From Terriglobia bacterium (lineage in GTDB: Bacteria; Acidobacteriota; Terriglobia; Terriglobales; Acidobacteriaceae), in assembly GCA_963786325.1 (NCBI GenBank), contig CAWAYW010000019.1, forward strand, positions 1,027-65,026: a DNA stretch of 64,000 bases, written 5' to 3'. Under the pieces are notes generated by a model that was given only the letters and a program-made list of their open reading frames with translations, had not been told where the DNA came from and did not search any database. This document shows, piece after piece, positions 7,610-41,720 of this stretch. The first letter of the stretch is position 1. Each line of letters starts with the position of its first letter. The position numbers and the translations under genes were made by a program.

Positions 7610-7829
7610 GAGAACTCTCCGCTTCCTTCGCGAATCACTTTGAGCAAACAAGCAAACTCATCTGAAAGGTGTAAATCACCGCGCTGGGAGCTGAGCCCAG
7701 TATCGTTCACGGGATCGTCGATGCTTGGATCGGCCACCGACAATCTGGACGGTCCAGCGTACGCGATATCCAAGTGCCGGTCCGTTCTGAACACTGCGCG
7801 TTGGAAGTTGCTTGCACTCACATCTCCTC

Positions 7830-21909: not shown

Positions 21910-23613
21910 TTATAGGAGACGCGGTTTCGAAACGGAAAGACGTTGACGATGAACCCGGTCATGGCACTCGGGATGAAGTAGAACGCGGTTGGTAGCACCT
22001 GCCGAACCACCCATCACACGGGAGACGCAGTAATGGAGCCGCCAGCCTGTGATCCGGGTGATTTTTGTATGGCACAGCGTGCAGAGACCATGTTGTTCAT
22101 ACCAGAGATAGCGAAGAGTGCGGGTACCCCGAAACGTTTCCAGCATGTGAGCCCCTTCCCGTTCTTCGAAGTAGGTTTCATAGGTTGGATCGTACGGGTT
22201 AGCTTCGCCTTTGACCTTGACGTGCCGTTTGATGGGAGTGCTCTTGGCGTAGTACAGCCAGACTTTATTTGTCTGTCCTTCGTCATCGCAGGTTTCACCG
22301 AAGAAGGACCAGCCCCGATTCCCGCGCTGGGCAAAGTATTTCGGTTTGAACCAGCGCGGGCTTTTGTTTGGGTGCCTTCGTCGTGCCCATTTCCACAGAC
22401 TTGAGAAGATGGAGTGATCAACGCATCCGAACGTGCGTTTGCTCACCACGTGCCGATGATAGTTGGCCCAACCGCGAATCTTTGGGTTGAGTTGATCGAT
22501 CAAGTCGGCGGCAGACACGCCCTGTGCAGCTCTGATGGTTCGTCGGATGCCATCCAGGAAGGTTTTAATATTCTTCTTGGAAGGCTTGATGAGCAGTTTC
22601 CCGTTAGGATATCTGCGCACGTTTTGTCCGAGGAAATCAAAGCCGTGCTCCACGTGCGTAATGACGGTCTTCGTCGGAGAGAGTTCAAGACCTCGTTCTT
22701 GCAAAAAATGCTCGACCAGGGGCTTAATTTCTCCTTCCAGTAATTCTTTCGATTTACTGGTGATGACGAAGTCATCCGCGTATCGGACGAGATTGACACA
22801 CGGTTTTTCACCTCCGAGGGACTTGAGACGTTTTCCTGCTGGATATTTTTCCCGCAAGAGTCGTTCAAGTCCGTCCAGCGCACAGTTAGCGAGCGCAGGA
22901 GAGATAATTCCACCTTGTGGAGTCCCGTTCGTCGTATCGTGAAGGACGTGTTTTTCCATGTACCCAGATTTCAGCCACTTTTGGAGAATGACTCGGTCCA
23001 TCAGGACGTGAGCCAAAAGCCAATCGTGTGAAATTTTGTCGAAACAGGACTTGATGTCGCCCTCCAGAATCCACTGCGTGTTTGCGCTTCTCAGTGCTTT
23101 GAAACACTGTTCCATCGCATCGGCGCAGGACCGCTGCTGACGAAACCCATAGGAGTTTTTATCAGCAGTGGTTTCCACAACGGGCGCGAGTGCGAGCAGA
23201 TACAGTGCTTGCTGCGCTCGATCCTTCATCGTGGGAATTCCGAGCGGGCGCATCATTTTGCCGTCCGACTTTGGGATGTAAACACGTCGCAGGGGCTGAG
23301 ACTGATAACCCCTACGCTTTAGTGCATGTACTGCCTGTGTTTTCTTCTCTGGTGTGTCCCAAATTTCTTGGTCCACCCCGGGGGTTTTCTTGCCATTGTT
23401 TTCCGTCACTCGTCGAACGGCGAGAACTTTGCCGCTATACGAGTGGGTCAGCAAACGTTGCAGGGCTCGCACCCTGCCCCATCTGCTTTCCTTCGTTGCC
23501 TGCACGATACGCACTTGGAGTCGGCGAACGTTGCGGTTGGTGGCCCGCCAATCGATGGCGTACCATTCCGCCGCTTCGCGTGAGACCGCACCAACAGCTT
23601 GCGCTGTCGTCAT
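21910..23613 (-). CDS. Group II intron reverse transcriptase/maturase with a C-terminal HNH endonuclease domain
   Basis: 567 aa with RT motifs (RPLGIPTMKDRAQQ, TPQGGIISPALAN, VRYADDFVI), a maturase X region (RGWANYHRHV) and Cys/His HNH-like motifs (CTLCH...HPECH). Confidence 0.9.
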   Translation of the reverse strand: MTTAQAVGAVSREAAEWYAIDWRATNRNVRRLQVRIVQATKESRWGRVRALQRLLTHSYSGKVLAVRRVTENNGKKTPGVDQEIWDTPEKKTQAVHALKRRGYQSQPLRRVYIPKSDGKMMRPLGIPTMKDRAQQALYLLALAPVVETTADKNSYGFRQQRSCADAMEQCFKALRSANTQWILEGDIKSCFDKISHDWLLAHVLMDRVILQKWLKSGYMEKHVLHDTTNGTPQGGIISPALANCALDGLERLLREKYPAGKRLKSLGGEKPCVNLVRYADDFVITSKSKELLEGEIKPLVEHFLQERGLELSPTKTVITHVEHGFDFLGQNVRRYPNGKLLIKPSKKNIKTFLDGIRRTIRAAQGVSAADLIDQLNPKIRGWANYHRHVVSKRTFGCVDHSIFSSLWKWARRRHPNKSPRWFKPKYFAQRGNRGWSFFGETCDDEGQTNKVWLYYAKSTPIKRHVKVKGEANPYDPTYETYFEEREGAHMLETFRGTRTLRYLWYEQHGLCTLCHTKITRITGWRLHYCVSRVMGGSAGATNRVLLHPECHDRVHRQRLSVSKPRLL

Positions 23614-24333: not shown

Positions 24334-26751
24334 CTATGTTGGAAGGCCGATGCGGCGCACCAGATCCTGGAAGCGCGGATCACTCCTCAGAGGATCGAGC
24401 CGCGGCTCCCACTTGCTGTACACGAGCCAGGTGGAGCGTTCAGTCACCGCCTTTGCCATCCACGCGAAGGCTGTGTCTTTCTCTCCCAGTGCAGCGTAGA
24501 TGAGTGCGATGTCAAAAGGCGAAACATAGGACTGCCTGGCTCGCTCCAGAAGGCCTTGCAAGACCTGCTCCGCCTCGCTCCGCCTGCCAGCCAGCGCATA
24601 AGCATGCGCGAGTCCCGCAAGATAGAAGGGGCTGAACAGGGGGCTGTCTTTGTTAGTTAACTCAACTGCTTTCTTAAATTCCGCAATTGCTTGCTCATGC
24701 ATGCCTTTTTGTTCGTAGTCCCAACCAAGGATGGCCATTTCCCAGGTATCGTCGGGCACCCTTTCTAGGAGGTTGCGCGCCATTTGGATGGAGTTGTCGT
24801 ATTGCCGGGCGGCGAAACTATGCCAGCAAAGGCAGTCGGTGAGACCGTCATTGACAGGGTCCAGGTCGAGTGCAAGCTTGCTTTCGGCGGCGGATTCAGC
24901 CATGCGGCCCATCGCCATAAGATAGTGAGCATACCCGTGGCGGATGTCGGCGCCGCTGGGATTCAACTCCAGAGCCCGTTTGAATTCGCGCTCTGCTCCA
25001 GGAAAGTCCCAATCGTAATGCAATTTCGCCGATGCCAGGGCCGCGTGACCTTCTGGCAGTTGATCATCTTTCTCGATCGCTAGCATCGCTAGTTCCTTTA
25101 CTTTTCCCCAGGCCTGACTTGGCGGAATTGCACTAAAAAAGCCGAGAAAGAAGTAAGCGTCGGCCATGTGGGCATAGGCCGGCGCATAGTTCGGGTCGAG
25201 TTTAATGGCCTGGTTGTAATAATCAATGCTCTTCTGCAATTCGAACTGATCCAGATAGTAGTTCGCCTTCAAATAAGTTTCATAAGCTTCGGGGCTTATC
25301 GTTTGTGCCGTGGGAAGCGGGTGCGGCTGCGGACCACCCAGCTTGCTCTGAATCTGTTTAGCGATTGCAGAGGCGACGTCATCCTCCAGGGCGAGAATGT
25401 CACGAAAATCCCGTTCGTAGGTTTCGGCCCAAAGATGTTTGTCCGTCGCTGCACGGATCAGTTGTGCGGTAACTCGCACACGATTGCCGGAGCGCTGCAC
25501 CGAACCTTCAACAATTGCGTCCGCGTGCAGTTCGCGAGCGATGTCCGGCAACGTTTTTTTCGCGTCTTTGTACTGCATCGTCGAACTACGCGAGATCACT
25601 TGCACACTTTGCATTCGCGCCAAATCAGTGGTCAGCGCCTCAGTCATGCCGTCGGCAAAGTAATCCTGTCCGGCGTCACCGGAAATATTCACCAAGGGCA
25701 GCACAGCCAGCGACTCAATATGGCCGATACCAGCTATGCGCTGAAGCAGGTGATCTCGCAACCCGCCCAAGTTAAACCCGGCGAGCACTGCGAAGAGCAC
25801 CGCGGTCCCGATTCCCATAAGTGGCCAGAGCTGAGGCAGTGCCCTCTGGCGAGAGACCGCCCGCCCGGAGGTTCTGTCCCGCTTGAGCCGCTCCAGATCG
25901 GCGCGGAAATCCTCCGCATTCTGGTAGCGCACCTTACGGTCCTTCTCCAGCGCCTTGCTGATGATCCGCTCGACTTCGGCTGGCAGGGAGGGATTCATGC
26001 GCACAGGCGATGTTGGCGTGCCATGGAGGATCGCGTCTGTGACAACGCCCGATGTCGCACCAGAGAACGCCTGAATGCCGGTCGCCATCTCGTACAGAAC
26101 GGCGCCGAGAGAGAAAATATCCGTACGTACGTCCAGCTCTTCGCCCCGTACTTGTTCCGGCGACATGTACATCAGGGTGCCAAACACCGCGCCCGGTGAG
26201 CTCACCGAATCTTCAACGCTGGCTGTTGGGGCTGAAGAACCGGCCACACTGGCAGGCCGCTGGTGCATCAGCTTCGCCAGTCCGAAATCCAGAACCTTGG
26301 CCTGTTCCCGTTGGGTAACGAAAATGTTAGCCGACTTGATGTCGCGGTGGATGATCCCCTGTTTGTGCGCTGCGTCTAGCGCGTCAGAAACCTGGATCCC
26401 CAAATCCAGAACGCTTTCGATCCCCAGCGGCTTGCCGTTGATGAAATGCCGGAGCGTCTGTCCCTCCAGAAGCTCCATCGCTATGAAGCCGCGTCCATCC
26501 GCCTCATCGATTTCGTAGATCGTACAAATGTTTGTGTGGTTCAGGGCAGACGCAGCGCGGGCCTCTCGCCGAAATCTAGCCAGCGCCTGCGCGTCGTTGG
26601 CGACTTCTTCCGGTAGAAACTTCAGGGCAACGTGGCGACCTAATTTGAGGTCTTCCGCCTCGTAGACAACACCCATGCCTCCGCCACCGATCTTGCGGAC
26701 TATGCGGTAATGGGAAACTGTCCGCCCCACGAGTTGGGAGGGCGTGGCCAC
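24334..26751 (-). CDS. Ser/Thr protein kinase with TM segment, TolB-like periplasmic domain and TPR repeats
   Basis: 805 aa with [25 protein letters not shown] and [13 protein letters not shown] segment follows, then [30 protein letters not shown] and a TPR-rich C-terminus. Confidence 0.85.
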
Positions 26752-27233
26752 TGTCGCAAATGGTAGGCGTGCTCTGGAGTCGGGTCAATGGCTAAGTAGC
26801 CCACCTTGGCTAGGAGCTTTGCGCCATGGCCATATACCGGTCCGGCATGGGACGGGTTCCGGACGTATTGTCGGCAGATGTGGTGTTCACCCGGCTCGAT
26901 TGGCACGAAGAAATACCTTCCACCGTCGACAGCACCCTCCCACGTTTCGTCAAATCCGAAAACGCTGGTGAGGTGGCCGTCCGCGACAAAATAGATTAGC
27001 GCATTGCCATCTTCCGGCGTGGGTGCCGGATGTTGCGATTCGTCGGTCTTCACTTCATATTTCTCGTTCTGCGGTCCACAGCCTACTTCCGCTCGGGATA
27101 TCGCCCTCTTTATCTTGGGCAAGCACACAGCAACAACCCTGGTCATTAGCTTGTTCCAAAGCGGGGGAGGGAGCATTTTGCCGTCGCCGTACACTACCCC
27201 CCTCTCGTTTGACGGGAAGAGAGAAAGAAGCAT
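26700..27233 (-). CDS. Hypothetical DUF2846-like protein
   Basis: LIYFVADGH...[18 protein letters not shown] resembles the DUF2846 pattern. The start codon is uncertain, and the ORF overlaps the kinase start by about 50 nt. Confidence 0.4.
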
Positions 27234-27259
27234 GCTCAGAGCGCTTGACGAACTAGTAA

Positions 27260-27640
27260 ATAGAAAAGAAGAAGAAGAAGAGAGACGTTGAAGTTGCTGT
27301 TGCTGTTGGGCTGGCCTTTGACGCGCGCGCGCTCGCTTCGCTCGCGCTTTGGAGTTGTGCTGAGTTGGTCAAAAAACAAAAAAAAACAAGATGCTGGAGT
27401 GGATCTGCAAAGTAACGCGACGCGCTGGTTTGGAGTGGAGTAGAGTTGGAGCTGACGTTGAGTTGAGTTGAGCTGAGCCTGACCTTCAGGTCAGAGCGCC
27501 CGCCTGCATTCAAAAGGAAGGGGTCTCAGAGCGACGCACGTGAAAGTGAAGGTGAACGTGTAAGTGAGTGCGCTAAAATTTGTCGGGCGCAGGGCGCGGG
27601 GGCGCGGAGTGGGAGGTGGGGCGTTGTGCCGATATCGCAC
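27260..27640. repeat. Strand-asymmetric low-complexity intergenic tract (microsatellites, A-tract, palindrome, G-runs)
   Basis: (GAA)n lies at ~27266-27284, GTTGCT x2 at ~27294, a CG/CT-rich run at 27320-27347 and A6CA9C at 27371-27388. GAGTTG repeats lie at 27459-27476, the palindrome CTGACCT-TC-AGGTCAG at 27479-27494, GTGAA-type repeats at 27540-27570 and G-runs at 27585-27621. Confidence 0.7.
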
Positions 27641-27689
27641 ACGATTGCAATCCAGAATGAACGCAACCAACGAAGAGAATTCTATCCAT

Positions 27690-30600
27690 TTAGAATGTGT
27701 ACTTCAGTGCTAGCTGTCCCACCCGAGGGTTCACGGACGTGCTACTAATCACGCCGAAAGTAGAAGAGCTGAAATTCGTATCGGGGTTCGCGAACTGTGG
27801 GTGATTCAGCGCGTTGAAAAACTCGGCGCGAAACTGGATGCTGCTGCTTTCGTGAACAACAATGCTTTTCGAGAATGCGATATCGATGTTTGCTTGTCCC
27901 GGCCCATCTACGATTCCCGTGCTGCTGTTCCCAAATGCGGTTCCGATACCATCCGCGCCAATGATGGGTGGACTGATAAAACAGGGCGCGTTGAAATAAC
28001 TATTCAATTTTGACTGGATCGATCCTCCTCTTACCAACTGGCTGTTCGAGCACGCACCGCTCAATTGTGCGCGGTCTTGACTGATTCCGAAGACATTCGT
28101 GGCATTTGTGTCGGCGATGGTAAGGGCAGTGCCAGACTGTATGGTCATGATTGCAGCTCCAGTCCAGTTGCCCAGTAACGCTCGGGCGAGGCCGTGATTT
28201 GGGCTTGGTACTGTCCACGTCGCGCTGAAAACAAAGCGATGCGCTCGGTCGAAGCTTGCTCTTCCCCAACGTTGCCGGGAAGAATTCTGATCTCCCAATG
28301 TCAGCGAGTTTCCCGTTGATATTGCATTCACGTCTGCACCATCAGAATCGAGGATCTTGGAGAAGGTATACGCGGCCAGAAGTTGCAGGCCGTGGCCCAG
28401 GCGCTTTGTGAGACTGGTTTCGAGCCCGTTATACCAGGAGTTGCCCTCCGATTCCTGTTCACGAAGAGAATCCGGAAGTATTCCAGGAATGGGTACTCGC
28501 GATCGAATATTCGCAAGCGTATTCGACGTCATTCCATTGATCGGATTGTCGGCAGATGCGGATAGCGCCTGGTTTAGCGAACGCACGCGTTGCAGGTGGG
28601 TGGCCCGCGTGCCGACGTATCCGGTCTCCAACAACCAACCCTTATGCAATTCTGACTGGAGATTTAACGAAAACTGCTGAGCGATTGCCGGCCGAAAGTT
28701 GGGCGCTATAACGCTGACTCCTACCGCCGAAGTCGGGGAATACGGTACGAACAAAGGGAAAGAAGCGGGAGTGGGAAAGGGCTGGGCGAACGGCGCTTGA
28801 AATGTTGCAGCCGCGTTCGAAACGCCAGAGGTACGTCGAGGCGATGCAAACGGCGCTCCGACTACCGATTGACTGGCCGTCTGGCCAGTCGGGCGCGAAT
28901 AATAGATGCCGTAGCCTCCCCTTACGACCAGCCGACTTGTGCCTGGCGATATCTGCAAGGCAAAACCGATTCGAGGTGCGATAGCATTTTGCCCTTCTCC
29001 ATAAGTCCCAAATGTGTTGTTGACCCGCGTGACTCCCGGAGGTACAGTGCCCGGAAAATTAGAAGGAACGATGTAGCCATCGAGAGTTCCGCCGGGTGGT
29101 GGATTTCGATTGGCCTTGCTGACATCGAAGCTCGAATTACGACCCAGCTCGTCACCGAACTGCCCGATCCGGTCAAAGCGCAGTCCGGCATTCACAGTGA
29201 AGGTCCGGCTGGCGCGAAAATCATCCTGCACGAAACCCGAGCCTTCCCAAACTCGGAATTCGCGATCAAATAAACCGAAATTATCTGAAGAACTAAAGAC
29301 ACTGCTGAAAGTTCCCGTGCCGTTCGCGCTTGCATTCAGACCGAGTAAGAAATCCGGCCAACTAAGAAACTGCAGAAATGATCCAAAGCCTGCGAAGCCG
29401 AGATTGTCCTGCAATCGGGTGAGCGATCCTCCGAATTTCACGGAATGCGCTCCCTTGAAAAAGCTAAAAGTGTCGCCGAGCACAAAGCTGTTCTGTGTAT
29501 CAGTTCGAGGAATCACGCTCCCCATGGCTACCGAACCGAGAATACCCAAGCTCGGCAGTTCGTTATTTCGATTCATTTCGCTCTCCAACACTCCGACATC
29601 CGACCATTTGAAAGGAGCGTCGGCGCCCATTTTGGTTTTTGTGCGAACGAAACCGATTCGGGCTTCGTTCAATAAGAAGTTGCTCAGGACGTAGGTGTGA
29701 GCCAGCGAGAAAACGACAAAATCGGAATTGCCTGGGCTGGTGAATCCTCGAATGTTTCCTGATGGATTGAATAAGGCAGGAAAAGTGACTGACTGATTGT
29801 TTTTTGCAATAAAGAATCGTCCTGCGAGTCGACTCTTCTGGGAAATGTTCGAGTCGAGACTCGCTGAGCCCTGGTGTTCCGCATAATCACACGGTTGGGT
29901 AAAGGTTGAAAACCCGCGGCTGGCAAACGGCTTTGTGGAATCCAGTGTTTGTGGCGTGGGAATCAAAAAACTTCCATCCGGCAGTTTAAACTTCAAGAGC
30001 GACAGTGCCACCGGATTGATATTGGAACCGTCCGGCAGAACAGCAACACCTCCCTGCGCACCCTTCATACCACCGAAAAGCCTCCCGAGAGCGGCAGGGG
30101 ATCGGTCATCAGTGATAGGCGGTTCGCTTAAGCTCGCGTTGCAAGCTATCCTCGTCTGCCCTGCAGCAAGGCCGTTAATCTGCCGTGTCTCCTGGTACGA
30201 GGTGTAGAAAAACACCTTGTTCTTTTTTAATGGTCCGCCGATGGAGGCTCCAAATTGGTTCTGCTTGAGCTCCGGACGCGGCCGGCTGGTCCGGTTCAAA
30301 AAGAAATCGTTGGCATTCAGGAAATCGTTACGCAGGAATTCGAAAACCGTGCCGTGGAAATTGTTGCTGCCCGTCTTGGTAATCACGCTGACATTGGCAC
30401 CTACCCCACGACCAAATGCTGCGTCGTAGAGACCGGTTTGAACCTTGAACTCTTCCAGGCTGTCGGGGTTCGGAATTGGGATTCCCCCGCTTATTGCGCC
30501 CGAGCCTTGAACATCGCTGACACTAATGCCATCGAGTTGCCAATTGTTGTCATAAGAGCGGGCTCCGTGGACGTAAATCCCGTCCGTTGACTTTCCCAAT

Positions 30601-31184
30601 TGGGAAAGTACTGTTCCTCCATTCCCCAACTCGCCGGCGTTGTAAACGCTGACACTCACTCCGGGGGAGAGCCCAGTGACCTGAGTGAAGTTTCGCGTCA
30701 CGAGGGGCAAATCGTTCACCATCAGTTTGTTAAGGGTTCTCCCCAGTGCCGAGCTGTCGAGTTGAACCATGAAGGGGGCCGAAGAAACATCTGTCTGCTC
30801 TACACGCGTTGCGAGCTCAAGGCGAAGCTCCACCCTTGATGTCTCAGTTACATACACTTGGACGTTAGGGAGAACCAGAGGTTTAAAATCGGGCTTGTCC
30901 GCCTGCAACTCGTACTTGCCTGAGCGTAGCAATACGAAACCAAATCGCCCCTCCTGGTCGGAGATAATGGATTGTTCGGAACCATACTGATTGGTTAGGT
31001 GAACAATCACGTCCCCGAGAACCGCGCCCGATGGGTCCAGCGTCACTCCTACCAGTGCCCCAGTGGATGCCGTCTGTCCACAGGCCAAGCCTACAAGCCC
31101 AAAGTTGAAGATACACGCTACGAGTAGGTGTTGACGGCGAGGAACGAGGAAATCGAAACACGCCTGAACGTAAGCGGAAATCAA
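27690..31184 (-). CDS. TonB-dependent receptor with N-terminal carboxypeptidase-regulatory-like domain
   Basis: 1164 aa with a signal peptide. It has a CarboxypepD_reg-like beta-sandwich (DPSGAVLGDVIVHLTN...GKYELQADKPDFK), plug and barrel, and the terminal ...LALKYTF. Confidence 0.85.
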   Translation of the reverse strand: MISAYVQACFDFLVPRRQHLLVACIFNFGLVGLACGQTASTGALVGVTLDPSGAVLGDVIVHLTNQYGSEQSIISDQEGRFGFVLLRSGKYELQADKPDFKPLVLPNVQVYVTETSRVELRLELATRVEQTDVSSAPFMVQLDSSALGRTLNKLMVNDLPLVTRNFTQVTGLSPGVSVSVYNAGELGNGGTVLSQLGKSTDGIYVHGARSYDNNWQLDGISVSDVQGSGAISGGIPIPNPDSLEEFKVQTGLYDAAFGRGVGANVSVITKTGSNNFHGTVFEFLRNDFLNANDFFLNRTSRPRPELKQNQFGASIGGPLKKNKVFFYTSYQETRQINGLAAGQTRIACNASLSEPPITDDRSPAALGRLFGGMKGAQGGVAVLPDGSNINPVALSLLKFKLPDGSFLIPTPQTLDSTKPFASRGFSTFTQPCDYAEHQGSASLDSNISQKSRLAGRFFIAKNNQSVTFPALFNPSGNIRGFTSPGNSDFVVFSLAHTYVLSNFLLNEARIGFVRTKTKMGADAPFKWSDVGVLESEMNRNNELPSLGILGSVAMGSVIPRTDTQNSFVLGDTFSFFKGAHSVKFGGSLTRLQDNLGFAGFGSFLQFLSWPDFLLGLNASANGTGTFSSVFSSSDNFGLFDREFRVWEGSGFVQDDFRASRTFTVNAGLRFDRIGQFGDELGRNSSFDVSKANRNPPPGGTLDGYIVPSNFPGTVPPGVTRVNNTFGTYGEGQNAIAPRIGFALQISPGTSRLVVRGGYGIYYSRPTGQTASQSVVGAPFASPRRTSGVSNAAATFQAPFAQPFPTPASFPLFVPYSPTSAVGVSVIAPNFRPAIAQQFSLNLQSELHKGWLLETGYVGTRATHLQRVRSLNQALSASADNPINGMTSNTLANIRSRVPIPGILPDSLREQESEGNSWYNGLETSLTKRLGHGLQLLAAYTFSKILDSDGADVNAISTGNSLTLGDQNSSRQRWGRASFDRAHRFVFSATWTVPSPNHGLARALLGNWTGAAIMTIQSGTALTIADTNATNVFGISQDRAQLSGACSNSQLVRGGSIQSKLNSYFNAPCFISPPIIGADGIGTAFGNSSTGIVDGPGQANIDIAFSKSIVVHESSSIQFRAEFFNALNHPQFANPDTNFSSSTFGVISSTSVNPRVGQLALKYTF

Positions 31185-31413
31185 GATTCACCCTTTCTCT
31201 TGCAACGAATGATTCAAGTTCCCGGAATCACCGCTTGTTTGCTTGAATCAGGTGCTTCGAATAAAATCGCCGTTGACCGTAAAGCACTGTTTAATTTTTT
31301 GACAACTGTCAGTTCTGACAGGGGCAGGGCAAAGCTGTCCGAGGTAGCCTTTTTGAATAAAATTTGTCAGGAAATTCAAAAGCAAGCCCCGAGGTCTGCC
31401 AATAAATCCGAAG

Positions 31414-33606
31414 ATGCCAAGGGCGAACCCACATTTCGTCATTGTTTCGGTTTTGTTCTGTTTCTTGCCTTGTAGCGCTGGGGAAGCGCCGTCCAAGCCC
31501 GTTCGTCGTGTCCTCATCTTTAATGAGGTGGGCACTGCTTACCCTGGTATCAATCTGATGGATCAGGGAATCCGGTCTGCGCTCCGCACTTCATCCTACA
31601 AGCTTGAGGTATATCGCGAGTACATGGATACGCTACTCTTCCCCGATCCGGCCGACCAGCAGCGATTCCGCGATTTCTACATCCGTAAATATCAAAATCG
31701 TAAACCGGACCTAATCATCACCGTGGGGCCGTCACCACTCAAGTTTATGCTGGAGACGCACCACAGCGCTTTTCCGGGCGTTCCGATCGCTTTTTGTTTG
31801 CCGACCTGGGGACCGGGTACCCCCGTGCTGGATTCAGATTTTACCGGGGTTGAAAATGCCTTCGCACCATTTGAGACAATCGAGGCGGCGTTGCGCCTGC
31901 AGCCCTCCACAAAGCACATCGTTGTAGTTGGGGGCGCCGGGGCACACGACAAACTTTTAGAGGAGCGAGTCAGAGACGAGCTGAAGCCTTATGAACGCAA
32001 CTTTGATCTTTCTTACCTGACTAATCTGACCATGCCTGATCTGGTCGAGACACTAAAGCGCCTGCCGAATCACACGATCGTCCTCTTTACAGGTATGGGT
32101 CAGGATGCGGCGGGCACAAAGTTCATTTCCGGGGAGGAAGCCGTCGAAAAAGTTGTTGCCGCCGCGAATGCCCCAGTGTTTGGCTTGAATGACATAAACC
32201 TGGGTCATGGAGAGGTGGGAGGAAAAGTCTCTTACATTCGCGAACAAGGCAGGATTGCTGGAGACATAGCCCTCCGGATGCTTAAAGGGGAAAGACCTCA
32301 AGATATCCCCAGGGTAAGAGATATAACAGCTTACATGTTCGATTCTCGTGCGCTGAAACGCTGGGGCTTCAAGGAGAGTGATCTTCCTCCTGGCAGCATC
32401 CTCCTCTACCGACAGGCCACCGTCTGGGAATCTTACAAGCAGTACATCATTGGCGGGATTGCTCTGATCTTGGCCGAAACGCTGCTCATTTTTGCTTTAG
32501 TCTGGCAGCGGGCTCGGGCAATAAAAGCCGAAACAGAGCGGCGTCGGGCCGAGGAAGCGATTCGCGAGAGCGAGGAGCGTTTCCGGCTGGTTGCGAACAC
32601 CGCACCTGTAATGATCTGGATGTCCCGGACGGACCGAAAATGCAGCTACGTCAACAAGACCTGGTTGGACTTCACAGGCCGCCCACTTGAAGCGGAGCTT
32701 GACGACGATTGGGCCGGAGGCCTTCATCCGGACGATTCGAGCCGCAGTTTGCAAACCTACACCGAAGCATTCGACCGAAGAGAGTCGTTTGAAATGCAGT
32801 ACCGGCTTCGGCGACACGATGGGGAGTATCGCTGGGTTCTGGACAAAGGTGTACCGAGATTTAACCCGGATGGTACTTTCGCTGGCTACATCGGCACTTG
32901 CATAGACATCACGGAACGAATGATCGCAGAGGAGAGTCTCGTCACCATTGGGCGGAGGCTGATTGAGGCCCACGAGGAGGAGCGTACCTGGATCGCGAGA
33001 GAGCTACACGACGACGTCAATCAACGCATGGCACTGTTGGCAATCGAGCTGGATCGATGGAACAAACAACTTCCGCCCTCGGCGGTTGAATTTCACGATC
33101 ACATCCATCACGCCAGCCAGCACCTTTCGGACATCGCCGCGGACATTCAGGCCCTGTCGCACCGCCTTCATTCTTCAAAACTCGAATATCTGGGTCTTGT
33201 GGCAGCAGCTAAGAGCTTCTGCAAAGAGTTGTCCGAGCAACAGAAGGTAGAGATTGACTTCAGCCATGCGGACATACCGCGCGGTGTCCCCAAGGAAATC
33301 TCGCTTTGTCTGTTCCGAGTTTTACAGGAAACTCTGCAGAATGGGGTGAAACACAGTGGCGTGCGGCACTTCAAAGTGGAACTGTGCGGTACAGAGGGAG
33401 AAATTCAACTGACCGTGAGCGACCTGGGAGTTGGCTTTGATCCGCAAGACGCCATCCACCGTCGCGGCCTCGGGCTCATCAGCATGCGAGAGCGACTGCA
33501 ATTGGTGAGCGGTGAGATTTCGATCAATTCACACCCCGGTTCTGGTACCACGGTCCACGCTCGTGTGCCTTTCAGAGGAACTGACTCACTCCTGGCTGTG
33601 GGGTAA
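31414..33606 (+). CDS. Sensor histidine kinase (periplasmic ABC-substrate-binding-like domain, TM, PAS, HisKA_3, HATPase_c)
   Basis: 730 aa with PAS (FRLVANTAPVMIWMS...), HisKA_3 (ELHDDVNQRMALL) and HATPase (LQNGVKHSG...DLGVGFD...GLGLISMRERL). Confidence 0.85.
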   Translation: MPRANPHFVIVSVLFCFLPCSAGEAPSKPVRRVLIFNEVGTAYPGINLMDQGIRSALRTSSYKLEVYREYMDTLLFPDPADQQRFRDFYIRKYQNRKPDLIITVGPSPLKFMLETHHSAFPGVPIAFCLPTWGPGTPVLDSDFTGVENAFAPFETIEAALRLQPSTKHIVVVGGAGAHDKLLEERVRDELKPYERNFDLSYLTNLTMPDLVETLKRLPNHTIVLFTGMGQDAAGTKFISGEEAVEKVVAAANAPVFGLNDINLGHGEVGGKVSYIREQGRIAGDIALRMLKGERPQDIPRVRDITAYMFDSRALKRWGFKESDLPPGSILLYRQATVWESYKQYIIGGIALILAETLLIFALVWQRARAIKAETERRRAEEAIRESEERFRLVANTAPVMIWMSRTDRKCSYVNKTWLDFTGRPLEAELDDDWAGGLHPDDSSRSLQTYTEAFDRRESFEMQYRLRRHDGEYRWVLDKGVPRFNPDGTFAGYIGTCIDITERMIAEESLVTIGRRLIEAHEEERTWIARELHDDVNQRMALLAIELDRWNKQLPPSAVEFHDHIHHASQHLSDIAADIQALSHRLHSSKLEYLGLVAAAKSFCKELSEQQKVEIDFSHADIPRGVPKEISLCLFRVLQETLQNGVKHSGVRHFKVELCGTEGEIQLTVSDLGVGFDPQDAIHRRGLGLISMRERLQLVSGEISINSHPGSGTTVHARVPFRGTDSLLAVG

Positions 33607-33766
33607 AGAACGTCCAATTCGGTGTTCTAAGCTCGCCCAATAGTCTGTTTCACTGGGAATGAACCGCTGAGTGCTCTGCACAGATTCGCTGGAAGATGAG
33701 GCTGTCTGGCTCGGCTTGACGGGTGCGGACGGCTACGGGCTGCCCGAATGAGGGTAGCATCATTTT

Positions 33767-34024
33767 TCAATTTCTTAGGCGCTTGTTTTGCAGATCATGG
33801 ATAGCCATTGTGAGCTTTCGGAGAGTACGCGGCTTAATGGTATTTTTTCCGTTCTTGAAACTTCTGATGGCGCATTCGGCAACTCTGGATTTGCGAGAGA
33901 GAAGCTTCGTGGAAAATTGTTTTGCCTCTCCCCGGATTTCTTCCAGATATTTCGCGTCGACTACTCTTTCGTACTCGCGGAATGTTTCATGGGTCGGGTC
34001 CAGGGCCCCCGCTTCGGCCATCAT
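33767..34024 (-). CDS. Small XRE-like helix-turn-helix protein
   Basis: The likely start is Met29 of tracked ORF 33767-34108 (MMAEAG). Its ATG overlaps the PolB-like stop (ATGA). The C-terminal SRVAECAIRSFKNGKNTIKPRTLRKLTMAI fits an XRE-type HTH. Confidence 0.5.
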   Translation of the reverse strand: MMAEAGALDPTHETFREYERVVDAKYLEEIRGEAKQFSTKLLSRKSRVAECAIRSFKNGKNTIKPRTLRKLTMAIHDLQNKRLRN

Positions 34025-36498
34025 GGATAGATCGGGCCCGCTCGCCCAGCGCGTTGATGCTTCCTTACCGATGAAGTGAAACTCCCCAGCAATGATGTGC
34101 CTGCGCACAAGCAGGCCGATTGTCTTGCTCGTGCATGTGCTGCCGTTGGGAGTGCAAAACTTGGCCTCGGCTCTGGACAGAAGGTGACTGATTTCGTCTT
34201 CATCGTTTTGAGAGAAAACCAGCCCAAAGGCTTGGGTAAGGTGGATGAATTCTTGTCGTGAATGTAGAAGGTTCCACCACTGACAACATTGACCATCGGA
34301 CGCCCGTGTAAATCATCGAGTTTTTCCGCATAAGGCATGATGAAGTATCCCTTCCAGAGCTGATTTACCTCCTTCTTGGGGAATGGAACGGTTACGACAG
34401 TAAAGGGACGGAGATCCTCCTTGAAACAGCCCAGCCGTTCCATGACCTGAGGTGTTGAAATTGGTATGGCCATAACTGCTGGTTGCTTCAACCAGCGTGG
34501 CGACTGATGTGGAAGGCCCAGCTCTCGCGAAAGGATGAAATGCCACGCCTCAAATATCCAAGGTGGCAAGTCTCGTTTCCATTTCCGTCCTGCCCTTCGC
34601 TGCCAGTCTGCAACACTGTAGGGTGCCTTTAAGAATCCCAATCCGTGGCCAGAGGGTTTGCGAACCAGCAATTGGTTACCTTCCAGGTTGTACTGACAAT
34701 ACAATTTCGCTGAAATACAGTACGCGTAGAGTTGCCGACGCTCGCCGTCTAAAGCGAAGTTCTCTTTTTCCAACTTGAGGAAGGGAACCTTGAGGTTATT
34801 GCGCCATGGGTTTATGGCTTCAAAACGATCCCGTATCTGATCCACGGCAGCATAGGACAGCGCTTTGACGGCAGCGTGCCCGCTCGGCATTTGAAACTTT
34901 TCTACCCTGTGTGGGCCGCCCGCGCATGGAACCAAACCGCCGTCTTTGGTTGAGACGATCATTGCGCTGTCTGTGTCCATCGCTGCGATCTGGCCTCCCA
35001 TGTCTCGCACTGCGCGCTCCAACACGGCGCAGAGCAAATGCGACCCGCCCGTTACGAGTGCAGCGATCACGGGACAATAGAACTCCGCCGGCTGCTCCCA
35101 AACCTTGGCAGTTGGAGTGTGATAGTCCGCTTGCCCGGAAAAAACATGCAAGGGAGAAGGAGAATCTAAGTCCTTGACATTCAGCTGGCAAAGGATGCCG
35201 AACGCGGCGCTATTGGCTGCTACCTTCAATCCGGTCGCCAATTCTGGGTCTTTAGCTTTCATCGCACTGCGCAATTCAATCAACTTAACGGCGAGGTCGT
35301 CACGAAGAGGATCTACTTCAAGTTGACCGTAGAGTTTTATGGGCATCAGTCCGGGTTGCACCCCGTGCGGAATAACCTGAATGGCTTTTAAGATCTTGAG
35401 CTGCTTGCCCGTGGTCACTTTCGCAGCTATTGCGTCCAGGCCCGTGACCCACATAGGCTGCTTTGAAAGGACAAAATTCCACCCCAATGTGGGATCGGAA
35501 TCGTCACGCGCCCCAAACTTCGCGCGGATAGGGATAACGTCTTCGCAGGGTTCGACGAGCGCGAACCAGCGAAGCTGCTTCCAGACTTCCGGGCGGAAAC
35601 AATCGTCCAGAGTTAGACGTTCCGTCATGTCAATCGCACCGTTTGTGAAATCGGCGAACTCCAGACTCTGAGCGCATAGTATTTCCCGGCAGTCGAGCAG
35701 ACTGCGTATCGCCGGGAACTGGGAAAAGAAATCGACGTACGTGATAGGTACTGGGGTTCGTCGGACGGTGCACTCTGAACGCCCTGCGGCAAACGACTGC
35801 GCGCCTATGCCATTGATCTTGTCCGGAATGTTGAATTTTCGCTGCGGCGGTCTTATGCCCATTGCTGAAAAGAAACTATTAGACAGGGTGGCTGGGGAGT
35901 AGCAGCGTTCCGGTTCCGGTGTTATCTTACGCGGGTGGCGGCGCAATTCCTCCCTCAGTCGATTCAGCAATTCCAATTCGCCGACAACAACCCTCAGAAC
36001 ACTGTCAATCGCTCGTTTCGTTACGCGTGGGCGAAGTTTTCGTGCACTACTGCCAGGAGCCCCAAAAATCTCGCGAGCGGACGAGAACGTGTGCGCTTCT
36101 CCGGTAAGAACGGCGGTCAGTGTCTTCAGATCGAGGATATGGACTTTTGATTGTTGCTCTTCTTCGCGTTCATCCTGTTCGTGAAACTTGTACTTGATCG
36201 GGCGGTAGATGGCCTTTGACGCATCCAGACTTTGAATCGAAAGCCCAGGATCGAACGGACTGGGGCGCACCTTGCCGGTTTGCTTGTCCTTGAACATGCG
36301 GAAGTAGAACGAGAACGCGCGCCGGTTTTTCAGCGATTTGTTCCACTTAATTGCAATCCGGCTGATTTGAAATGGTGCATCGTAGGCAACGATGAGCCCT
36401 CCGGACTTCAAATATTTCAGGAAAACCTTGCGACGAAACTCTTCTAGACTTCCGAGTTCATAAGCACTGTTCTTCACGAACCGCTTGAACACCCGCAA
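34021..36498 (-). CDS. Highly divergent family-B DNA polymerase-like protein (protein-primed / primer-independent PolB-like)
   Basis: 825 aa. The motifs occur in the canonical order: YVDFFSQFP (motif A, D256), KVAANSAAFG (motif B, K425), AMDTDS (motif C, D508/D510) and AKLY (KxY, K598). The start is TTG or GTG. Confidence 0.7.
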   Translation of the reverse strand: MRVFKRFVKNSAYELGSLEEFRRKVFLKYLKSGGLIVAYDAPFQISRIAIKWNKSLKNRRAFSFYFRMFKDKQTGKVRPSPFDPGLSIQSLDASKAIYRPIKYKFHEQDEREEEQQSKVHILDLKTLTAVLTGEAHTFSSAREIFGAPGSSARKLRPRVTKRAIDSVLRVVVGELELLNRLREELRRHPRKITPEPERCYSPATLSNSFFSAMGIRPPQRKFNIPDKINGIGAQSFAAGRSECTVRRTPVPITYVDFFSQFPAIRSLLDCREILCAQSLEFADFTNGAIDMTERLTLDDCFRPEVWKQLRWFALVEPCEDVIPIRAKFGARDDSDPTLGWNFVLSKQPMWVTGLDAIAAKVTTGKQLKILKAIQVIPHGVQPGLMPIKLYGQLEVDPLRDDLAVKLIELRSAMKAKDPELATGLKVAANSAAFGILCQLNVKDLDSPSPLHVFSGQADYHTPTAKVWEQPAEFYCPVIAALVTGGSHLLCAVLERAVRDMGGQIAAMDTDSAMIVSTKDGGLVPCAGGPHRVEKFQMPSGHAAVKALSYAAVDQIRDRFEAINPWRNNLKVPFLKLEKENFALDGERRQLYAYCISAKLYCQYNLEGNQLLVRKPSGHGLGFLKAPYSVADWQRRAGRKWKRDLPPWIFEAWHFILSRELGLPHQSPRWLKQPAVMAIPISTPQVMERLGCFKEDLRPFTVVTVPFPKKEVNQLWKGYFIMPYAEKLDDLHGRPMVNVVSGGTFYIHDKNSSTLPKPLGWFSLKTMKTKSVTFCPEPRPSFALPTAAHARARQSACLCAGTSLLGSFTSSVRKHQRAGRAGPIYP

Positions 36499-36561
36499 TT
36501 CTACCGAGTTGGAGTTGTGGATCTTACGATGATAAACAGTTGAAAAAGGCAGGAGATCGGC

Positions 36562-37539
36562 TTACGAATGTACCTTTTTCGGCGTACTGTGTGAACGCAT
36601 TCGCTTGTTTTTGTCGGCGCGCACTTTGTTCGCCAGACGTGGCGACACGTTATGTCTTCGTGCCACGACTGTCAGGACTACTTGATACGTAGGCACCCCA
36701 CCCAGGGGATAAGATGATTCGAGGCCCTTGTAGGCAGTGCAAATTTCCTTGAGATCGCTATTACTCAATACAGTTTTGGGCCGTTCGCGAAGAAATCCCC
36801 CAGCAGCCGCGTCAAGGAGGGGCTCACCCTGTTTCTTTGCTGCCAGTTTGTCCCACTTCTTATTCAACCACCTGACGAAAGCAGCATAGTCACTAAATCC
36901 GGGGCGCATCCATGGTTTTGGATCGTCAGCGAGTTGCAACATTTCAAGCTCAAAGACCGCTGCTGAGGCTGCCATTCTCGTGGGGCTGAGATAAGTGTCT
37001 GTCTCTCGTGCAATTTTCTGCTTGCGGTTCCAGTATCCCTTCCACCAACGCTCTGCGGCCGCTCTTCGGCTCTTTACTGAGTCAGGAGAACTCGCAAGTC
37101 TCCCTAGCATCAGTTCCGCGATGGCGAATGTTTTCCATCCGCAGTACTCCCACTCTAACGGATGCGCCTGCTGGAAAGAGGTAAGCAGCGCAGCTATGTT
37201 ATTGGCCGCGTCTCTCTGGAAACGCATACGCTGATATTTGCGATAGTACTCACGGTTAGTGATGTTGATATCTAACTGGAACTTGGCGAAACGTGCTCGA
37301 GCCTCGTCGTCTGGCTGTCGCACGCGCCCGAATCTGGTGCCGGCAATTCTTTCGCCCAAGCTAAGCCTCGGGCTGGGACTCTCAGGCAAGTTATTCACGG
37401 GCGCCGTTGAGCGCTCGCCGTGAATGTACTGGCGGATTAGCCCGGGCAAGTCTTCGGGGCGGATTGCAATTTCTGACTGAAGCTGTGCGCCACGGGCCCG
37501 GACTTCGGCTGTTACAACGTCCCCAGTTCCATTGCGCAT
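36562..37539 (-). CDS. Hypothetical protein (325 aa), first gene of the PolB module
   Basis: Long ORF with an ATG start. I recognise no domain. The C-terminus is basic (KVRADKNKRMRSHSTPKK). It is in the same reading frame as the PolB-like ORF. Confidence 0.5.
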   Translation of the reverse strand: MRNGTGDVVTAEVRARGAQLQSEIAIRPEDLPGLIRQYIHGERSTAPVNNLPESPSPRLSLGERIAGTRFGRVRQPDDEARARFAKFQLDINITNREYYRKYQRMRFQRDAANNIAALLTSFQQAHPLEWEYCGWKTFAIAELMLGRLASSPDSVKSRRAAAERWWKGYWNRKQKIARETDTYLSPTRMAASAAVFELEMLQLADDPKPWMRPGFSDYAAFVRWLNKKWDKLAAKKQGEPLLDAAAGGFLRERPKTVLSNSDLKEICTAYKGLESSYPLGGVPTYQVVLTVVARRHNVSPRLANKVRADKNKRMRSHSTPKKVHS

Positions 37540-37798: not shown

Positions 37799-38923
37799 AT
37801 GAACAGCAAGGTGAAGAAGATTCGGGGGATATTCGAGAAGGTGCCTGGGTCCGGCGTGTGGTGGATTCAGTACTTTGACGCTCAGGGGAGGCGCCGGCGC
37901 GAGAAAGCTGGGCTGAGGAGCTCGGCAATCAGCCTCTATCGTAAGCGCAAGACCGAGGCGCTCGAAGGAAAGAAGTTGCCAGAAAAGTTGCGCACAAGAG
38001 TTGTCAAATTCTCCGAGTTGGCGGACGACGCGCTGGAATACTGCAAGGCAAATAATCTCGGCCACCAATTTGACCGTTACCGTATCGGGCGTCTAATGGA
38101 CGAGTTCGGATCACACTCGGCTGATCTTCCTATCGAGGACCTTCGGCGCTGGTTCACGGAGCAGCAATGGAAGCCGGCGACCTTTAACCGCTACAAGTCA
38201 ATGCTTTCGCTCATTTACCGCCTAGGCGTCGAGCATGGAAAGGTCACGTCGAACCCAGCTAAGCTGTTGAAGCGTAAACGGGAGGATAACGGGCGTGTGC
38301 GGTTCCTAAATCAGTATTCGCCAGAAGAAGAGTCCCGGTTACGAGCCGCGATCGAAGCAGGCGCGGCCGGTCATACGGCTGAGTTTGAGATCGCGCTGCA
38401 CACGGGTATGAGGCCAAGCGAACAGTATGGGCTCACTTGGGATCGCGTTGATCTGATCCGTCGATTTGTGACCATACCTAAGAGCAAAAACGGCAAGATG
38501 CGACACATTCCGCTAAACTCCACCGCGCTGGCTGCCTTCCAGGGGCTCTTTTCGCGGTCGCGTGCCGAGGGTCCAGTATTTGTCAATACTCACGGGAAGA
38601 CTTTGAAGGGTTATAAGCATTGGTTTGAGCCTGCGGTACGGAACGCCAAGACTAAAGATTTCACTTGGTATTGTCTCCGGCACACCTTTGCCAGCAGACT
38701 GGTGATGGGGGCAGTCGATCTGCGCACAGTGGCTGAGTTGATGGGCCACAAAACTATTCAAATGACCATGAGGTATGCGCACCTAGCTCCGGCGCACAAC
38801 CTAGCGGCAGTCGAAAGGCTTAGCCCGCAGCCTGCGGTCGTCGTTCAAAAGGGCTCAAGTGCCACCACAAGTGCCACCGCCCAATTAGAGTCCGTTCTTT
38901 CCGTAGCCAGCGCCATGCAGTAA
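37799..38923 (+). CDS. int: Tyrosine integrase (phage-integrase family), intact
   Basis: 374 aa with HTGMRPSEQ (R), CLRHTFAS (HxxR) and LMGHKTIQMTMRYAHL (H...Y). It stops 32 nt before tRNA-Lys. Confidence 0.9.
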   Translation: MNSKVKKIRGIFEKVPGSGVWWIQYFDAQGRRRREKAGLRSSAISLYRKRKTEALEGKKLPEKLRTRVVKFSELADDALEYCKANNLGHQFDRYRIGRLMDEFGSHSADLPIEDLRRWFTEQQWKPATFNRYKSMLSLIYRLGVEHGKVTSNPAKLLKRKREDNGRVRFLNQYSPEEESRLRAAIEAGAAGHTAEFEIALHTGMRPSEQYGLTWDRVDLIRRFVTIPKSKNGKMRHIPLNSTALAAFQGLFSRSRAEGPVFVNTHGKTLKGYKHWFEPAVRNAKTKDFTWYCLRHTFASRLVMGAVDLRTVAELMGHKTIQMTMRYAHLAPAHNLAAVERLSPQPAVVVQKGSSATTSATAQLESVLSVASAMQ

Positions 38924-38955: not shown

Positions 38956-39031
38956 GGGCGCGTAGCTCAGTTGGCAGAGCAATGCCCTTTTAAGGCATGG
39001 GTCGATGGTTCGAGTCCATCCGCGCTCACCA
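38956..39031 (+). tRNA. tRNA-Lys (anticodon TTT)
   Basis: GGGCGCG-TA-GCTC-AGTTGGCA-GAGC-A-ATGCC-CTTTTAA-GGCAT-GGGTC-GATGG-TTCGAGT-CCATC-CGCGCTC-A-CCA. All four stems pair (one G-U), and CCA is encoded. Confidence 0.9.
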
Positions 39032-41156: not shown

Positions 41157-41194
41157 TTAAAAGGGCATTGCTCTGCCAACTGAGCTACGCGCCC
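41157..41194 (-). pseudogene. Partial tRNA-Lys: 38-nt copy of the 5' half, ending in the anticodon loop
   Basis: The reverse complement is GGGCGCGTAGCTCAGTTGGCAGAGCAATGCCCTTTTAA. It is identical to 38956-38993, and identity stops right after the anticodon loop. Confidence 0.85.
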
Positions 41195-41229
41195 ATCTTA
41201 TTGATTACACTGACGTCGCCTTGATTTCA

Positions 41230-41720
41230 GCAACTCGCACAAAACGCTTGGTGCTAGTTTTGGTGTCAGTTCCGTTCCCGGCATGGCTGACCAACTCTGA
41301 ACAGCGGCAAGGTCGTGCGCGGGAGCTAAATGTGGTTAACGCATTGTCATCTGGATTGTCTGATGTCCCATGAGTTCGGCCACAGCGCGAATGTCAACTC
41401 CAGCCGTCACCAACCGACGCAAAACTATGTCGTAAAGAATAACACGTCAAGTCATCTATTTTGGCGTTGGCCATAGCTTTATCAAACCAGTGCTGTAGCC
41501 GTTGAACGGGAAGACCTGCGAACCGTTCGACGCCAGTTTCTTCAACGCAGCGAGTCGACAGTGTTCTAACAATCAAGTAAGGCAATATCTCTCCCTTCAA
41601 AGTCACGTGTAAAGGAACACTTCTCAATGGGACTGTGACGGCTAACTAAATACGCCTCATTTTTCGTCGTGGGCACCCTGGGTGTTGTCAGTTGGGCAAA
41701 AGTAGTCGCTCTGGTGATTC
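41230..41720 (-). pseudogene. Decayed paralogue of the 37799-38923 integrase
   Basis: WFDKAMANAKIDDLTCYSLRHSFAS is followed by a frameshift, then GVDIRAVAELMGHQTIQMTMR*PHLAPAHDLAAV. The intact copy reads MTMRYAHLAPAHNLAAV, so a TAA replaces the catalytic Tyr codon. Further stops lie upstream. Confidence 0.7.

Follow-up and report, generated by a model that had tools for sequence, protein, structure and literature searches.

A Truncated and Frame-Shifted Family B DNA Polymerase Gene, Very Probably From a Family 3 Casposon, in a Terriglobia Bacterium

Introduction

What is the long open reading frame (ORF) that lies on the minus strand, at positions 34021-36498, of a 64,000-nt stretch of DNA from a Terriglobia bacterium (assembly GCA_963786325.1, contig CAWAYW010000019.1, positions 1,027-65,026; hereafter the window)? 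An initial annotation, made from the sequence alone, described it as a family B DNA polymerase (PolB) gene with an odd start, degenerate exonuclease motifs and a long C-terminal extension. In this work, the ORF was compared with its homologues and their gene neighbourhoods. The ORF very probably derives from the polymerase gene of a family 3 (bacterial) casposon and has since decayed. Casposons are transposons that replicate themselves and have Cas1 as their integrase. This kind of element is already known, and the probably exonuclease-inactive variant of its polymerase found here is not described in the literature searched.

Published casposon surveys have covered some tens of elements, few of them bacterial. 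The questions asked of the locus are taken in turn: what the ORF encodes, whether it is intact, which element it came from, what remains of that element in the window and what became of the exonuclease.

The ORF Encodes a Family B DNA Polymerase

The frame is open for 825 codons from a TTG, with the coordinates and the start given in the initial annotation, and an identical 823-aa protein has been deposited from the source assembly. Four polymerase motifs follow one another on the minus strand at the places first reported. Motif A (YVDFFSQFP, residues 254-262, 35713-35739) carries its catalytic Asp and is followed by motif B (KVAANSAAFG, residues 425-434, 35197-35226), motif C with both catalytic Asp (AMDTDS, residues 506-511, 34966-34983) and the KxY motif (AKLY, residues 597-600, 34699-34710). 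Conservation was counted in the 120 closest homologues and in 149 listed representatives of clusters at 50% identity, where these cover the sites. Among the close homologues, the motif A Asp is present in 119 of 120, the Lys and Gly of motif B in all 120 and its Asn in 119, and both Asp of motif C as well as the Lys and Tyr of KxY in every one. Of the 149 cluster representatives, practically all those that reach the four motifs likewise keep the catalytic residues, with the motif A Asp present in 141/141. The four polymerase motifs are no chance matches.

The protein has escaped existing profiles. Neither the window ORF nor its close homologues match any model in Pfam, NCBIfam, PHROGs or PADLOC; searched directly, the ORF also had no match among PDB sequences, and a profile built from the close homologues alone had none there either. 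At least 271 homologues are present in a database of predicted proteins. Of the best 120, which are 65-85% identical to the window protein (the identical deposited copy aside), nearly all are ~990 aa long and none bears a name; their source is Acidobacteria/Terriglobales metagenomes. When 1.84 billion cluster representatives were searched with a profile, 3698 relatives were returned at E <= 1e-3 (counted as clusters at 50% identity) and 1144 at E <= 1e-30. A tblastn search of plasmid and phage collections with a family member gave no match.

In an alignment of 75 sequences from this wider family (A2), the polymerase consensus is Y-x-D-F-x-S-M-Y-P for motif A, K-V-x-A-N-S-x-S-Y-G for motif B and F-C-D-T-D-S for motif C, followed by KxY. 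The exonuclease consensus is D-T-E-T for ExoI, N-x-P-F-D for ExoII and Y-x3-D for ExoIII. In the family profile, motif B aligns to Pol alpha and the PolB of Tgo, and motif C aligns to the DTDS of Pol alpha; both motifs also align to those of archaeal PolB structures. Distant members match PF03175 (DNA_pol_B_2), among them P0231 at 6.9e-9 and 35.5 bits, above the cut-off of 25.8.

The fold agrees with these motifs. An AlphaFold 2 (AF2) model calculated from 24 close homologues was useless (pLDDT 40.7), and the diverse 75-sequence alignment was needed. On A2, the full-length homologue P0007 was modelled with a pLDDT of 90.3 and a pTM of 0.91, and the model has the right-hand fold of a PolB. The top Foldseek matches in PDB and BFVD are all PolBs at a probability of 1.00. 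The best neighbours in PDB are Pol alpha, phi29, archaeal PolBs and E. coli Pol II (E 1e-13 to 1e-10), and the best viral neighbours are the protein-primed polymerases of tectiviruses, His1, phi29-like phages and adenovirus. Neither outcome named at the outset as refuting the initial annotation, motif residues that vary among homologues or a fold other than that of a PolB, was observed.

Which branch of family B does the protein resemble? The polymerase begins with the exonuclease, continues through palm, fingers and thumb, and ends in a C-terminal region of ~310 aa. In full-length homologues, ExoI is found ~37 residues in from the N-terminus, which leaves no separate N-terminal domain, a trait of both protein-primed and primer-independent PolBs. 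The AF2 model shows a beta-rich insertion after the motif B helix. Protein-primed PolBs (phi29, PRD1/tectiviruses, His1, adenovirus; PF03175) likewise have no domain before the exonuclease, similar motif spacings and a beta-rich insertion after the motif B helix, and they supply both the best viral structural neighbours and the Pfam match of distant members. These results support a phi29-like architecture of the protein-primed type for the family, not one of the cellular replicative type, and bear out the phi29-type PolB first proposed. The proposed likeness to primer-independent PolBs (piPolBs) fails at motif C: piPolBs lack its first Asp (PMC7544198), whereas both are invariant here. The family also differs from protein-primed PolBs in that no terminal-protein gene was identified and that polymerases of families 2 and 3 are counted as RNA-primed in the casposon literature. 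With an RNA-primed class in the casposon papers and a protein-primed-type architecture in the present analysis, any statement on the mode of priming is speculative.

The long C-terminal extension noticed in the initial annotation is real in full-length homologues, where ~310 residues follow KxY and end in a helix-turn-helix (HTH). The polymerase is almost twice the size of that of phi29, from which it also differs by this region. The HTH matches LacI/Xre-type HTH structures in profile comparison and forms helices 927-987 in the AF2 model. By homology to P0007, profile and model, it is encoded at 33767..33960 on the minus strand of the window, in a frame shifted from that of the ORF.

The Window Copy Is Truncated and Frame-Shifted

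Is the gene intact? The initial annotation had treated it so. Its homologues are ~990 aa long, and what the window holds is a pseudogene, a remnant on the minus strand (33767..36540) that corresponds by tblastn and BLASTP to approximately residues 70-988 of these proteins. By tblastn, frame -2 carries the match to residues 70-885 of P0007 (988 aa) at 36537-34078, and frame -1 carries that to residues 802-988 at 34285-33770. The BLASTP identity to P0007 is 76% for the first piece and 73% for the second, the latter over residues 876-988.

At the 5' side, homology to full-length polymerases ends at a breakpoint mapped by tblastn to 36537..36545 on the minus strand, with similarity ceasing at ~36540. 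The window copy is without the first ~69 codons, ExoI included, and, as judged on the AF2 model of P0007, the N-terminal beta-strands of the exonuclease fold are gone. The initial annotation was right that neither an ATG nor a Shine-Dalgarno sequence precedes the frame; both are missing because of the 5' truncation and not because of an unusual start.

The second lesion is the deletion of a single G at 34200..34201 (minus strand). In the DNA alignment to the homologous genes of four related loci (L001, L003, L006 and L007), all four read GATGGAAGAC where the window has GAT-GAAGAC. Because this G is missing, the last 59 residues of the ORF are frame-shifted. This tail (34021-34199, 59 codons) is out of frame and corresponds to nothing in the homologues; the sequence for the true C-terminus lies at 33767-34199. 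Thus, 166 of the ~225 residues that had been counted after KxY are genuine and the last 59 are not. A programmed frameshift was considered and ruled out, as all homologues are contiguous.

Of 198 positions invariant in its subclade, the window copy departs at 3, as many as the median of the other members. In the absence of any excess, the damage would be recent, or the frameshift would be an assembly error. Judged from its sequence, the window copy is a dead, damaged remnant and not an intact gene.

Related Polymerases Very Probably Belong to Family 3 Casposons

From what element did the remnant come? Gene neighbourhoods were compared in 88 related loci from several phyla, of which 81 were searched for terminal inverted repeats (TIRs) and target-site duplications (TSDs) and 69 supplied a Cas1 for family assignment. 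A Cas1 of one subfamily, ~510 aa long, is encoded in 78 of the 88 loci, usually divergently and 2-4 kb upstream of the polymerase. Directly upstream of the polymerase stand an ORF of ~178 aa (82/88 loci) and one of ~111 aa (74/88 loci). The same arrangement of two small ORFs before the polymerase, with the ~510-aa Cas1 nearby, is seen on five contigs with close homologues. The 111-aa protein has the HNH-like consensus C..CG..E..H.GGRNH..PLC...H, and the 178-aa protein looks like an HTH protein. The Cas1 proteins carry a zinc ribbon and a C-terminal HTH and match PF01867 at 2.4e-29.

These genes and their cargo are bounded by repeats. A TIR search over short distances found little; a search of the whole locus revealed a TIR pair with a perfect TSD in 37 of the 81 loci. 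The TIRs are perfect or near-perfect, start with GGGG(T/A) or GGGA and, where perfect, reach up to 1.5 kb. As scored by script, the TSD length is 14 bp in 27 elements, 12 bp in 8, 15 bp in one and 16 bp in one. The 12-bp call of L001 becomes 14 bp when the palindromic C/G at the TIR boundary is reassigned by eye, and the other 12-bp cases share the C+GGG start of L001. By script, 23 TSDs contain TTGAC/GTCAA; in most duplications, this sequence stands at one end. Complete elements span 7.6-20 kb, and their cargo is variable, with RHS toxins and kinases included.

The Cas1 proteins were assigned by best match, not by a tree, to the reference Cas1 alignment of Krupovic et al. (2014). For all 69, the best match is a family 3 casposase, that of AceAut-C1 in 65 cases and that of Saccharopolyspora in 4. 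The median score falls from 216 bits against family 3 to 111 against family 2, 67 against family 1 and 60 against CRISPR Cas1, and the Cas1 proteins are 39-47% identical to AceAut-C1.

Described examples of family 3 include NitAL212-C1 (Nitrosomonas sp. AL212), AceAut-C1, StrAlb-C1 and HenMar-C1 (PMC4046053; PMC4779613). In NitAL212-C1, the genes are Zf-Cas1, HTH, HTH, HNH and PolB-HTH, and the TIR (GGGGTATGTTAAC...GTACACTT) is flanked by a 14-bp TSD; in StrAlb-C1 and HenMar-C1, an HNH gene lies directly upstream of PolB (Krupovic et al. 2014 supplement, PMC4046053). The relatives share with NitAL212-C1 the gene order Cas1, HTH, HNH, PolB, the C-terminal HTH on the polymerase, TIRs starting GGGGTA (GGGGTA...TACAC in NitAL212-C1) and the 14-bp TSD. 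With family 3 in general, they share the zinc ribbon of Cas1, bacterial hosts and variable cargo. Because Cas1 matches, gene order, TIRs and TSDs agree, the polymerase is very probably a family 3 casposon replicase, a context that the initial annotation had missed.

The elements also depart from those described. Described members of family 3 come from Proteobacteria, Actinobacteria and Acetothermia, whereas the present hosts are mostly Acidobacteriota, joined by Gemmatimonadota, Chloroflexota, Actinomycetota and Dormibacterota. The polymerase family, with its 3698 clusters, is far more numerous, the window subclade is without exonuclease catalytic residues and the window copy is only a fragment. 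At least 558 loci are found in species-representative genomes, mostly of soil Acidobacteriota. In the literature searched, itself incomplete, casposons and Acidobacteria appear together only where the words happen to co-occur; an unpublished survey is referred to by one group.

How does the family relate to known casposon polymerases? As described by Kazlauskas et al. (2020, PMC7544198), the PolB_CDTDS cluster includes the polymerase of the Aciduliprofundum boonei casposon and has ties both to the main group of PolBs and to the protein-primed one. Compared by cluster name and description, the family is similar in its motif C (F-C-D-T-D-S), and the dual relationship fits its weak matches to PF00136-type structures and to PF03175. 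The window subclade differs in having A-M-D-T-D-S, not C-D-T-D-S.

Two further observations concern the related loci. Two or three Cas1 genes lie within 20 kb in some of them (22106-22973 in L003; 1029-2765, 6408-6767 and 20212-21753 in L038), which indicates multiple copies or tandem elements per genome. One locus (L014) belongs to a cultured strain, Tunturiibacter gelidiferens X5P2 (NZ_JACHEB010000004.1); its exonuclease motif is intact, and two ORFs (6549-7496 and 7486-8127) divide its Cas1 between them.

Remains of the Element in the Window

What is left of the element around the remnant? A single TIR appears to survive at the polymerase-distal end (27214..27244, plus strand), 6.5 kb past the polymerase stop codon. 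Its sequence, GGGAAGAGAGAAAGAAGCATGCTCAGAGCGC, is unique in the window, where it has no partner, and resembles the subclade TIRs of L001 (GGGAAGAGAGAACTGACATAGCTTAGAGCGCC), L003, L006 and L007. The TIR is abutted by a 14-bp target-site copy, ccctctcgtttgac (27200..27213, plus strand), which contains TTGAC and follows the family pattern of duplications. Cas1 is absent from the window by tblastn with the Cas1 of L001 and L003 and by a Cas1 profile hidden Markov model run on the window ORFs, and the small HNH and HTH ORFs of L001 and L003 gave no tblastn match in the window.

The interval between the TIR and the polymerase (27245..33766) is probable cargo. Pfam recognises two genes in it, one on the minus strand (27690-31184) for an outer-membrane beta-barrel protein and one on the plus strand (31414-33606) for a PAS histidine kinase. 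Because complete relatives carry 2.4-7 kb of variable cargo at the matching position, these two genes are probably cargo of the casposon. A stretch downstream of the polymerase of L064 (14001-14613) is 69% identical to the window histidine kinase gene, and this match weakly supports the kinase as casposon cargo. Just inside the TIR, 27245-27690 has no ORF and consists of low-complexity GAAGAAGAAGAAGAAGAG, an A-rich stretch and repeated GAGTTGAG/GAGCTGAG units.

The Subclade Has Lost the Exonuclease Site

Are the degenerate exonuclease motifs part of the decay? In the wider family, the catalytic set D-E-D-Y-D is kept in 106 of the 117 representatives that cover all sites. In the window copy, ExoI falls within the deleted part, and the residues are D...Q at ExoII and S...V at ExoIII. 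The absence of exonuclease catalytic residues, as first described, was confirmed against the homologues; its details were in part revised. AYDAPF, followed by Q (36370..36387, minus strand), is indeed the ExoII site, in which D40 aligns with the Asn of the family consensus N-x-P-F-D and the catalytic Asp is replaced by Gln at position 44. AYE14 is not a remnant of ExoI, since the true ExoI (family positions 37-39) lies in the deleted N-terminus.

The same sites are altered in the close homologues. Among the 120 closest, the ExoI Asp is replaced by Arg or His in 106, the ExoI Glu by Ala or Val in 103 and the ExoII Asp by Glu or Gln in 118, and the ExoIII Tyr is variable. The nearest sister clusters (P0121-P0124) are likewise degenerate. 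The domain itself is conserved, with a mean pairwise identity in the subclade of 70% against 74% in the polymerase core, and it is confidently folded in the AF2 model of P0007. Since the homologues share the replacements and the domain is conserved and confidently folded, the loss of the proofreading residues extends across the lineage. Of the two explanations offered at the outset, lost proofreading or a domain too divergent to read, the second is rejected. On these alignments, the degenerate motifs are a trait of the acidobacterial subclade and neither decay of the window copy nor an alignment problem. The elements of the subclade most likely replicate with a non-proofreading polymerase.

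Elements with such a polymerase still look mobile, to judge from their ends. The long TIRs of L003, L006 and L007 measure 54-251 nt; those of L003 and L007 are perfect, those of L006 match at 92%, and the TSDs of all three are perfect. Pol alpha, Pol zeta and archaeal PolB2 are similar in that the exonuclease fold is kept, its carboxylates are replaced and the polymerase site is intact. They are of unrelated lineages, whereas the loss here is inside a transposon replicase. No paper describing an exonuclease-inactive casposon polymerase was found in the literature searched, which is incomplete.

Abutting Repeats and Target Choice

The junction at the surviving TIR holds a second repeat. From outside, the 14-bp site is abutted by a casposon TIR end of a second type (27162..27199, minus strand; reverse complement GGGTAGTGTACGGCGACGGCAAAATGCTCCCTCCCC...); between it and the TIR of the element that bears the polymerase are exactly 14 bp. 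There is neither Cas1 nor PolB on the side of this second repeat, which resembles a solo TIR or else a resident element that has decayed and had its target site reused. The same junction of TIR, 14 bp and TIR is present at 3283-3380 of L064, with 84% identity to the window over 100 nt.

Among the 37 complete elements, 17 have a TIR-like sequence outside and abutting one TSD copy, scored against the 99.9th percentile of a random control (L003, L012, L018, L019, L028, L031, L034, L038, L041, L044, L046, L048, L053, L056, L063, L070 and L075). Together with the TTGAC sites, these abutting TIRs suggest that the elements may prefer sites beside an existing casposon end. The junctions recall the tandem insertions and solo TIRs reported for Methanosarcina casposons.

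Alternative Readings of the Locus

Several points weigh against a casposon origin of the remnant and the account of it given above. Cas1, HNH and HTH genes are all missing from the window and a single TIR is present, so that its assignment draws on the homology of the polymerase and one repeat, and the TIR at 27214 is linked to the polymerase by distance and subclade type only. The family assignment draws on the Cas1, gene order, TIRs and TSDs of the relatives. The loss of exonuclease activity is read from residues, and the missing base falls in a GG dinucleotide, where an assembly error is possible. How far do these points carry? There is some chance, well short of even, that the gene is 5'-truncated only and that an error of sequencing or assembly produced the frameshift at 34200/34201. 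What is missing is one G within this dinucleotide, there is otherwise no surplus of substitutions at conserved positions, and metagenome assemblies make up many of the related genomes. Even so, the start, the ExoI region and the partner genes would still be absent. An intact, highly divergent PolB gene, read from TTG or GTG and carrying a degenerate exonuclease domain, would suit the open 825-aa frame, the deposited 823-aa protein and the intact polymerase motifs. It is very improbable against more than 100 close homologues of ~990 aa, which extend ~70 aa further at the N-terminus and whose C-terminus the window encodes in a different frame; the final 59 residues would be without counterpart and the exonuclease fold without its N-terminal beta-strands.

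Other elements or systems could also bring a polymerase to such a place. An integrase and a tRNA-Lys gene lie 1.3-2.5 kb upstream of the polymerase, which is akin to the assemblage of protein-primed PolBs and piPolBs, and the gene could on this ground be the piPolB of a pipolin mobilised at tRNA-Lys by the tyrosine integrase at 37799-38923. This can be given almost no credence, as homology to the polymerase family stops before a 325-aa ORF and the integrase, the relatives go with Cas1 and TIR/TSD and not with a conserved integrase, and motif C retains the Asp that piPolBs are without (PMC7544198). The pipolin reading was ruled out by motif C and gene neighbourhood. It is similarly hard to credit that the Cas1/HNH/PolB module is a domesticated host system, for example for defence, of which the window copy would be a decayed gene. 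Nucleotide homology between loci does stop at the ends of the Cas1 and PolB genes, with variable flanks, and RHS toxins and kinases are among the cargo. Yet the perfect TIRs and perfect TSDs in 37 loci bound module and cargo together, several genomes hold multiple copies and some insertions are in tandem. The defence reading was rejected on the TIRs and TSDs around the module. A decayed polymerase gene of a family 3 casposon thus remains the preferred reading of the locus.

Surrounding Mobile Region

The remnant lies in a region (18-44 kb) that is rich in other mobile elements. Upstream of it on the same strand is a 325-aa ORF (36562-37539) that is unrelated to the polymerase and has no match in Pfam, NCBIfam, PHROGs or PADLOC; its stop codon is ~20 nt from the start of polymerase homology. 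It might be part of the integrase element, which would then have displaced the left half of the casposon. The tyrosine integrase (37799-38923, plus strand) is outside the region of polymerase homology and is followed by tRNA-Lys(TTT) at 38956-39031. A perfect 39-nt inverted copy of the 5' half of this tRNA lies at 41157-41195, beside a fragment of another tyrosine recombinase (41394-41627, minus strand; ...SLRHSFA...). This layout suggests an inversion or two opposed integrative elements. Beyond the TIR junction, further mobile or accessory genes are clustered. A pair of tyrosine recombinases lies side by side at 17967-18881 and 19060-19917. With them are an IS110-family transposase (20616-21698), the HNH-bearing reverse transcriptase/maturase of a group II intron (21910-23613) and a Ser/Thr kinase that carries TPR repeats (24334-26751).

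Concluding Remarks

How would an intact element of this kind work? In intact relatives, Cas1 and HTH/HNH/PolB-HTH form divergent units between the TIRs. By analogy with other casposons, the element would be copied by its own family B polymerase, and the Cas1 casposase would join the element ends to a target cut in a staggered manner, 14 bp apart. Insertion duplicates 14 bp of target, usually with TTGAC, and the C-terminal HTH might, speculatively, bring the polymerase to the element ends or TIRs. The window copy has lost its first ~69 codons and one base and, on this reading, the HNH, HTH and Cas1 genes and one TIR. The consequences of lost proofreading for such elements are speculative.

Being a dead fragment, the window copy is of little importance by itself. 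The polymerase family to which it belongs comprises thousands of clusters at 50% identity; its loci have clean TIRs and TSDs, it has at least one cultured member, and T. gelidiferens X5P2 is a possible experimental entry point. As there is no Pfam or NCBIfam model for the polymerase, these elements are annotated as hypothetical proteins. The subclade that has kept the polymerase site and lost the exonuclease carboxylates offers a testable transposon replicase without proofreading. Could there be a large, still-mobile family 3 lineage in soil bacteria that replicates without proofreading and prefers a 14-bp TTGAC site abutting a casposon end? Taken as a whole, this proposition is unlikely. If true, the lineage would be a model for error-prone self-replication of a transposon and for the recognition of a repeat-adjacent target by a Cas1 integrase, the step thought to have given rise to CRISPR arrays.

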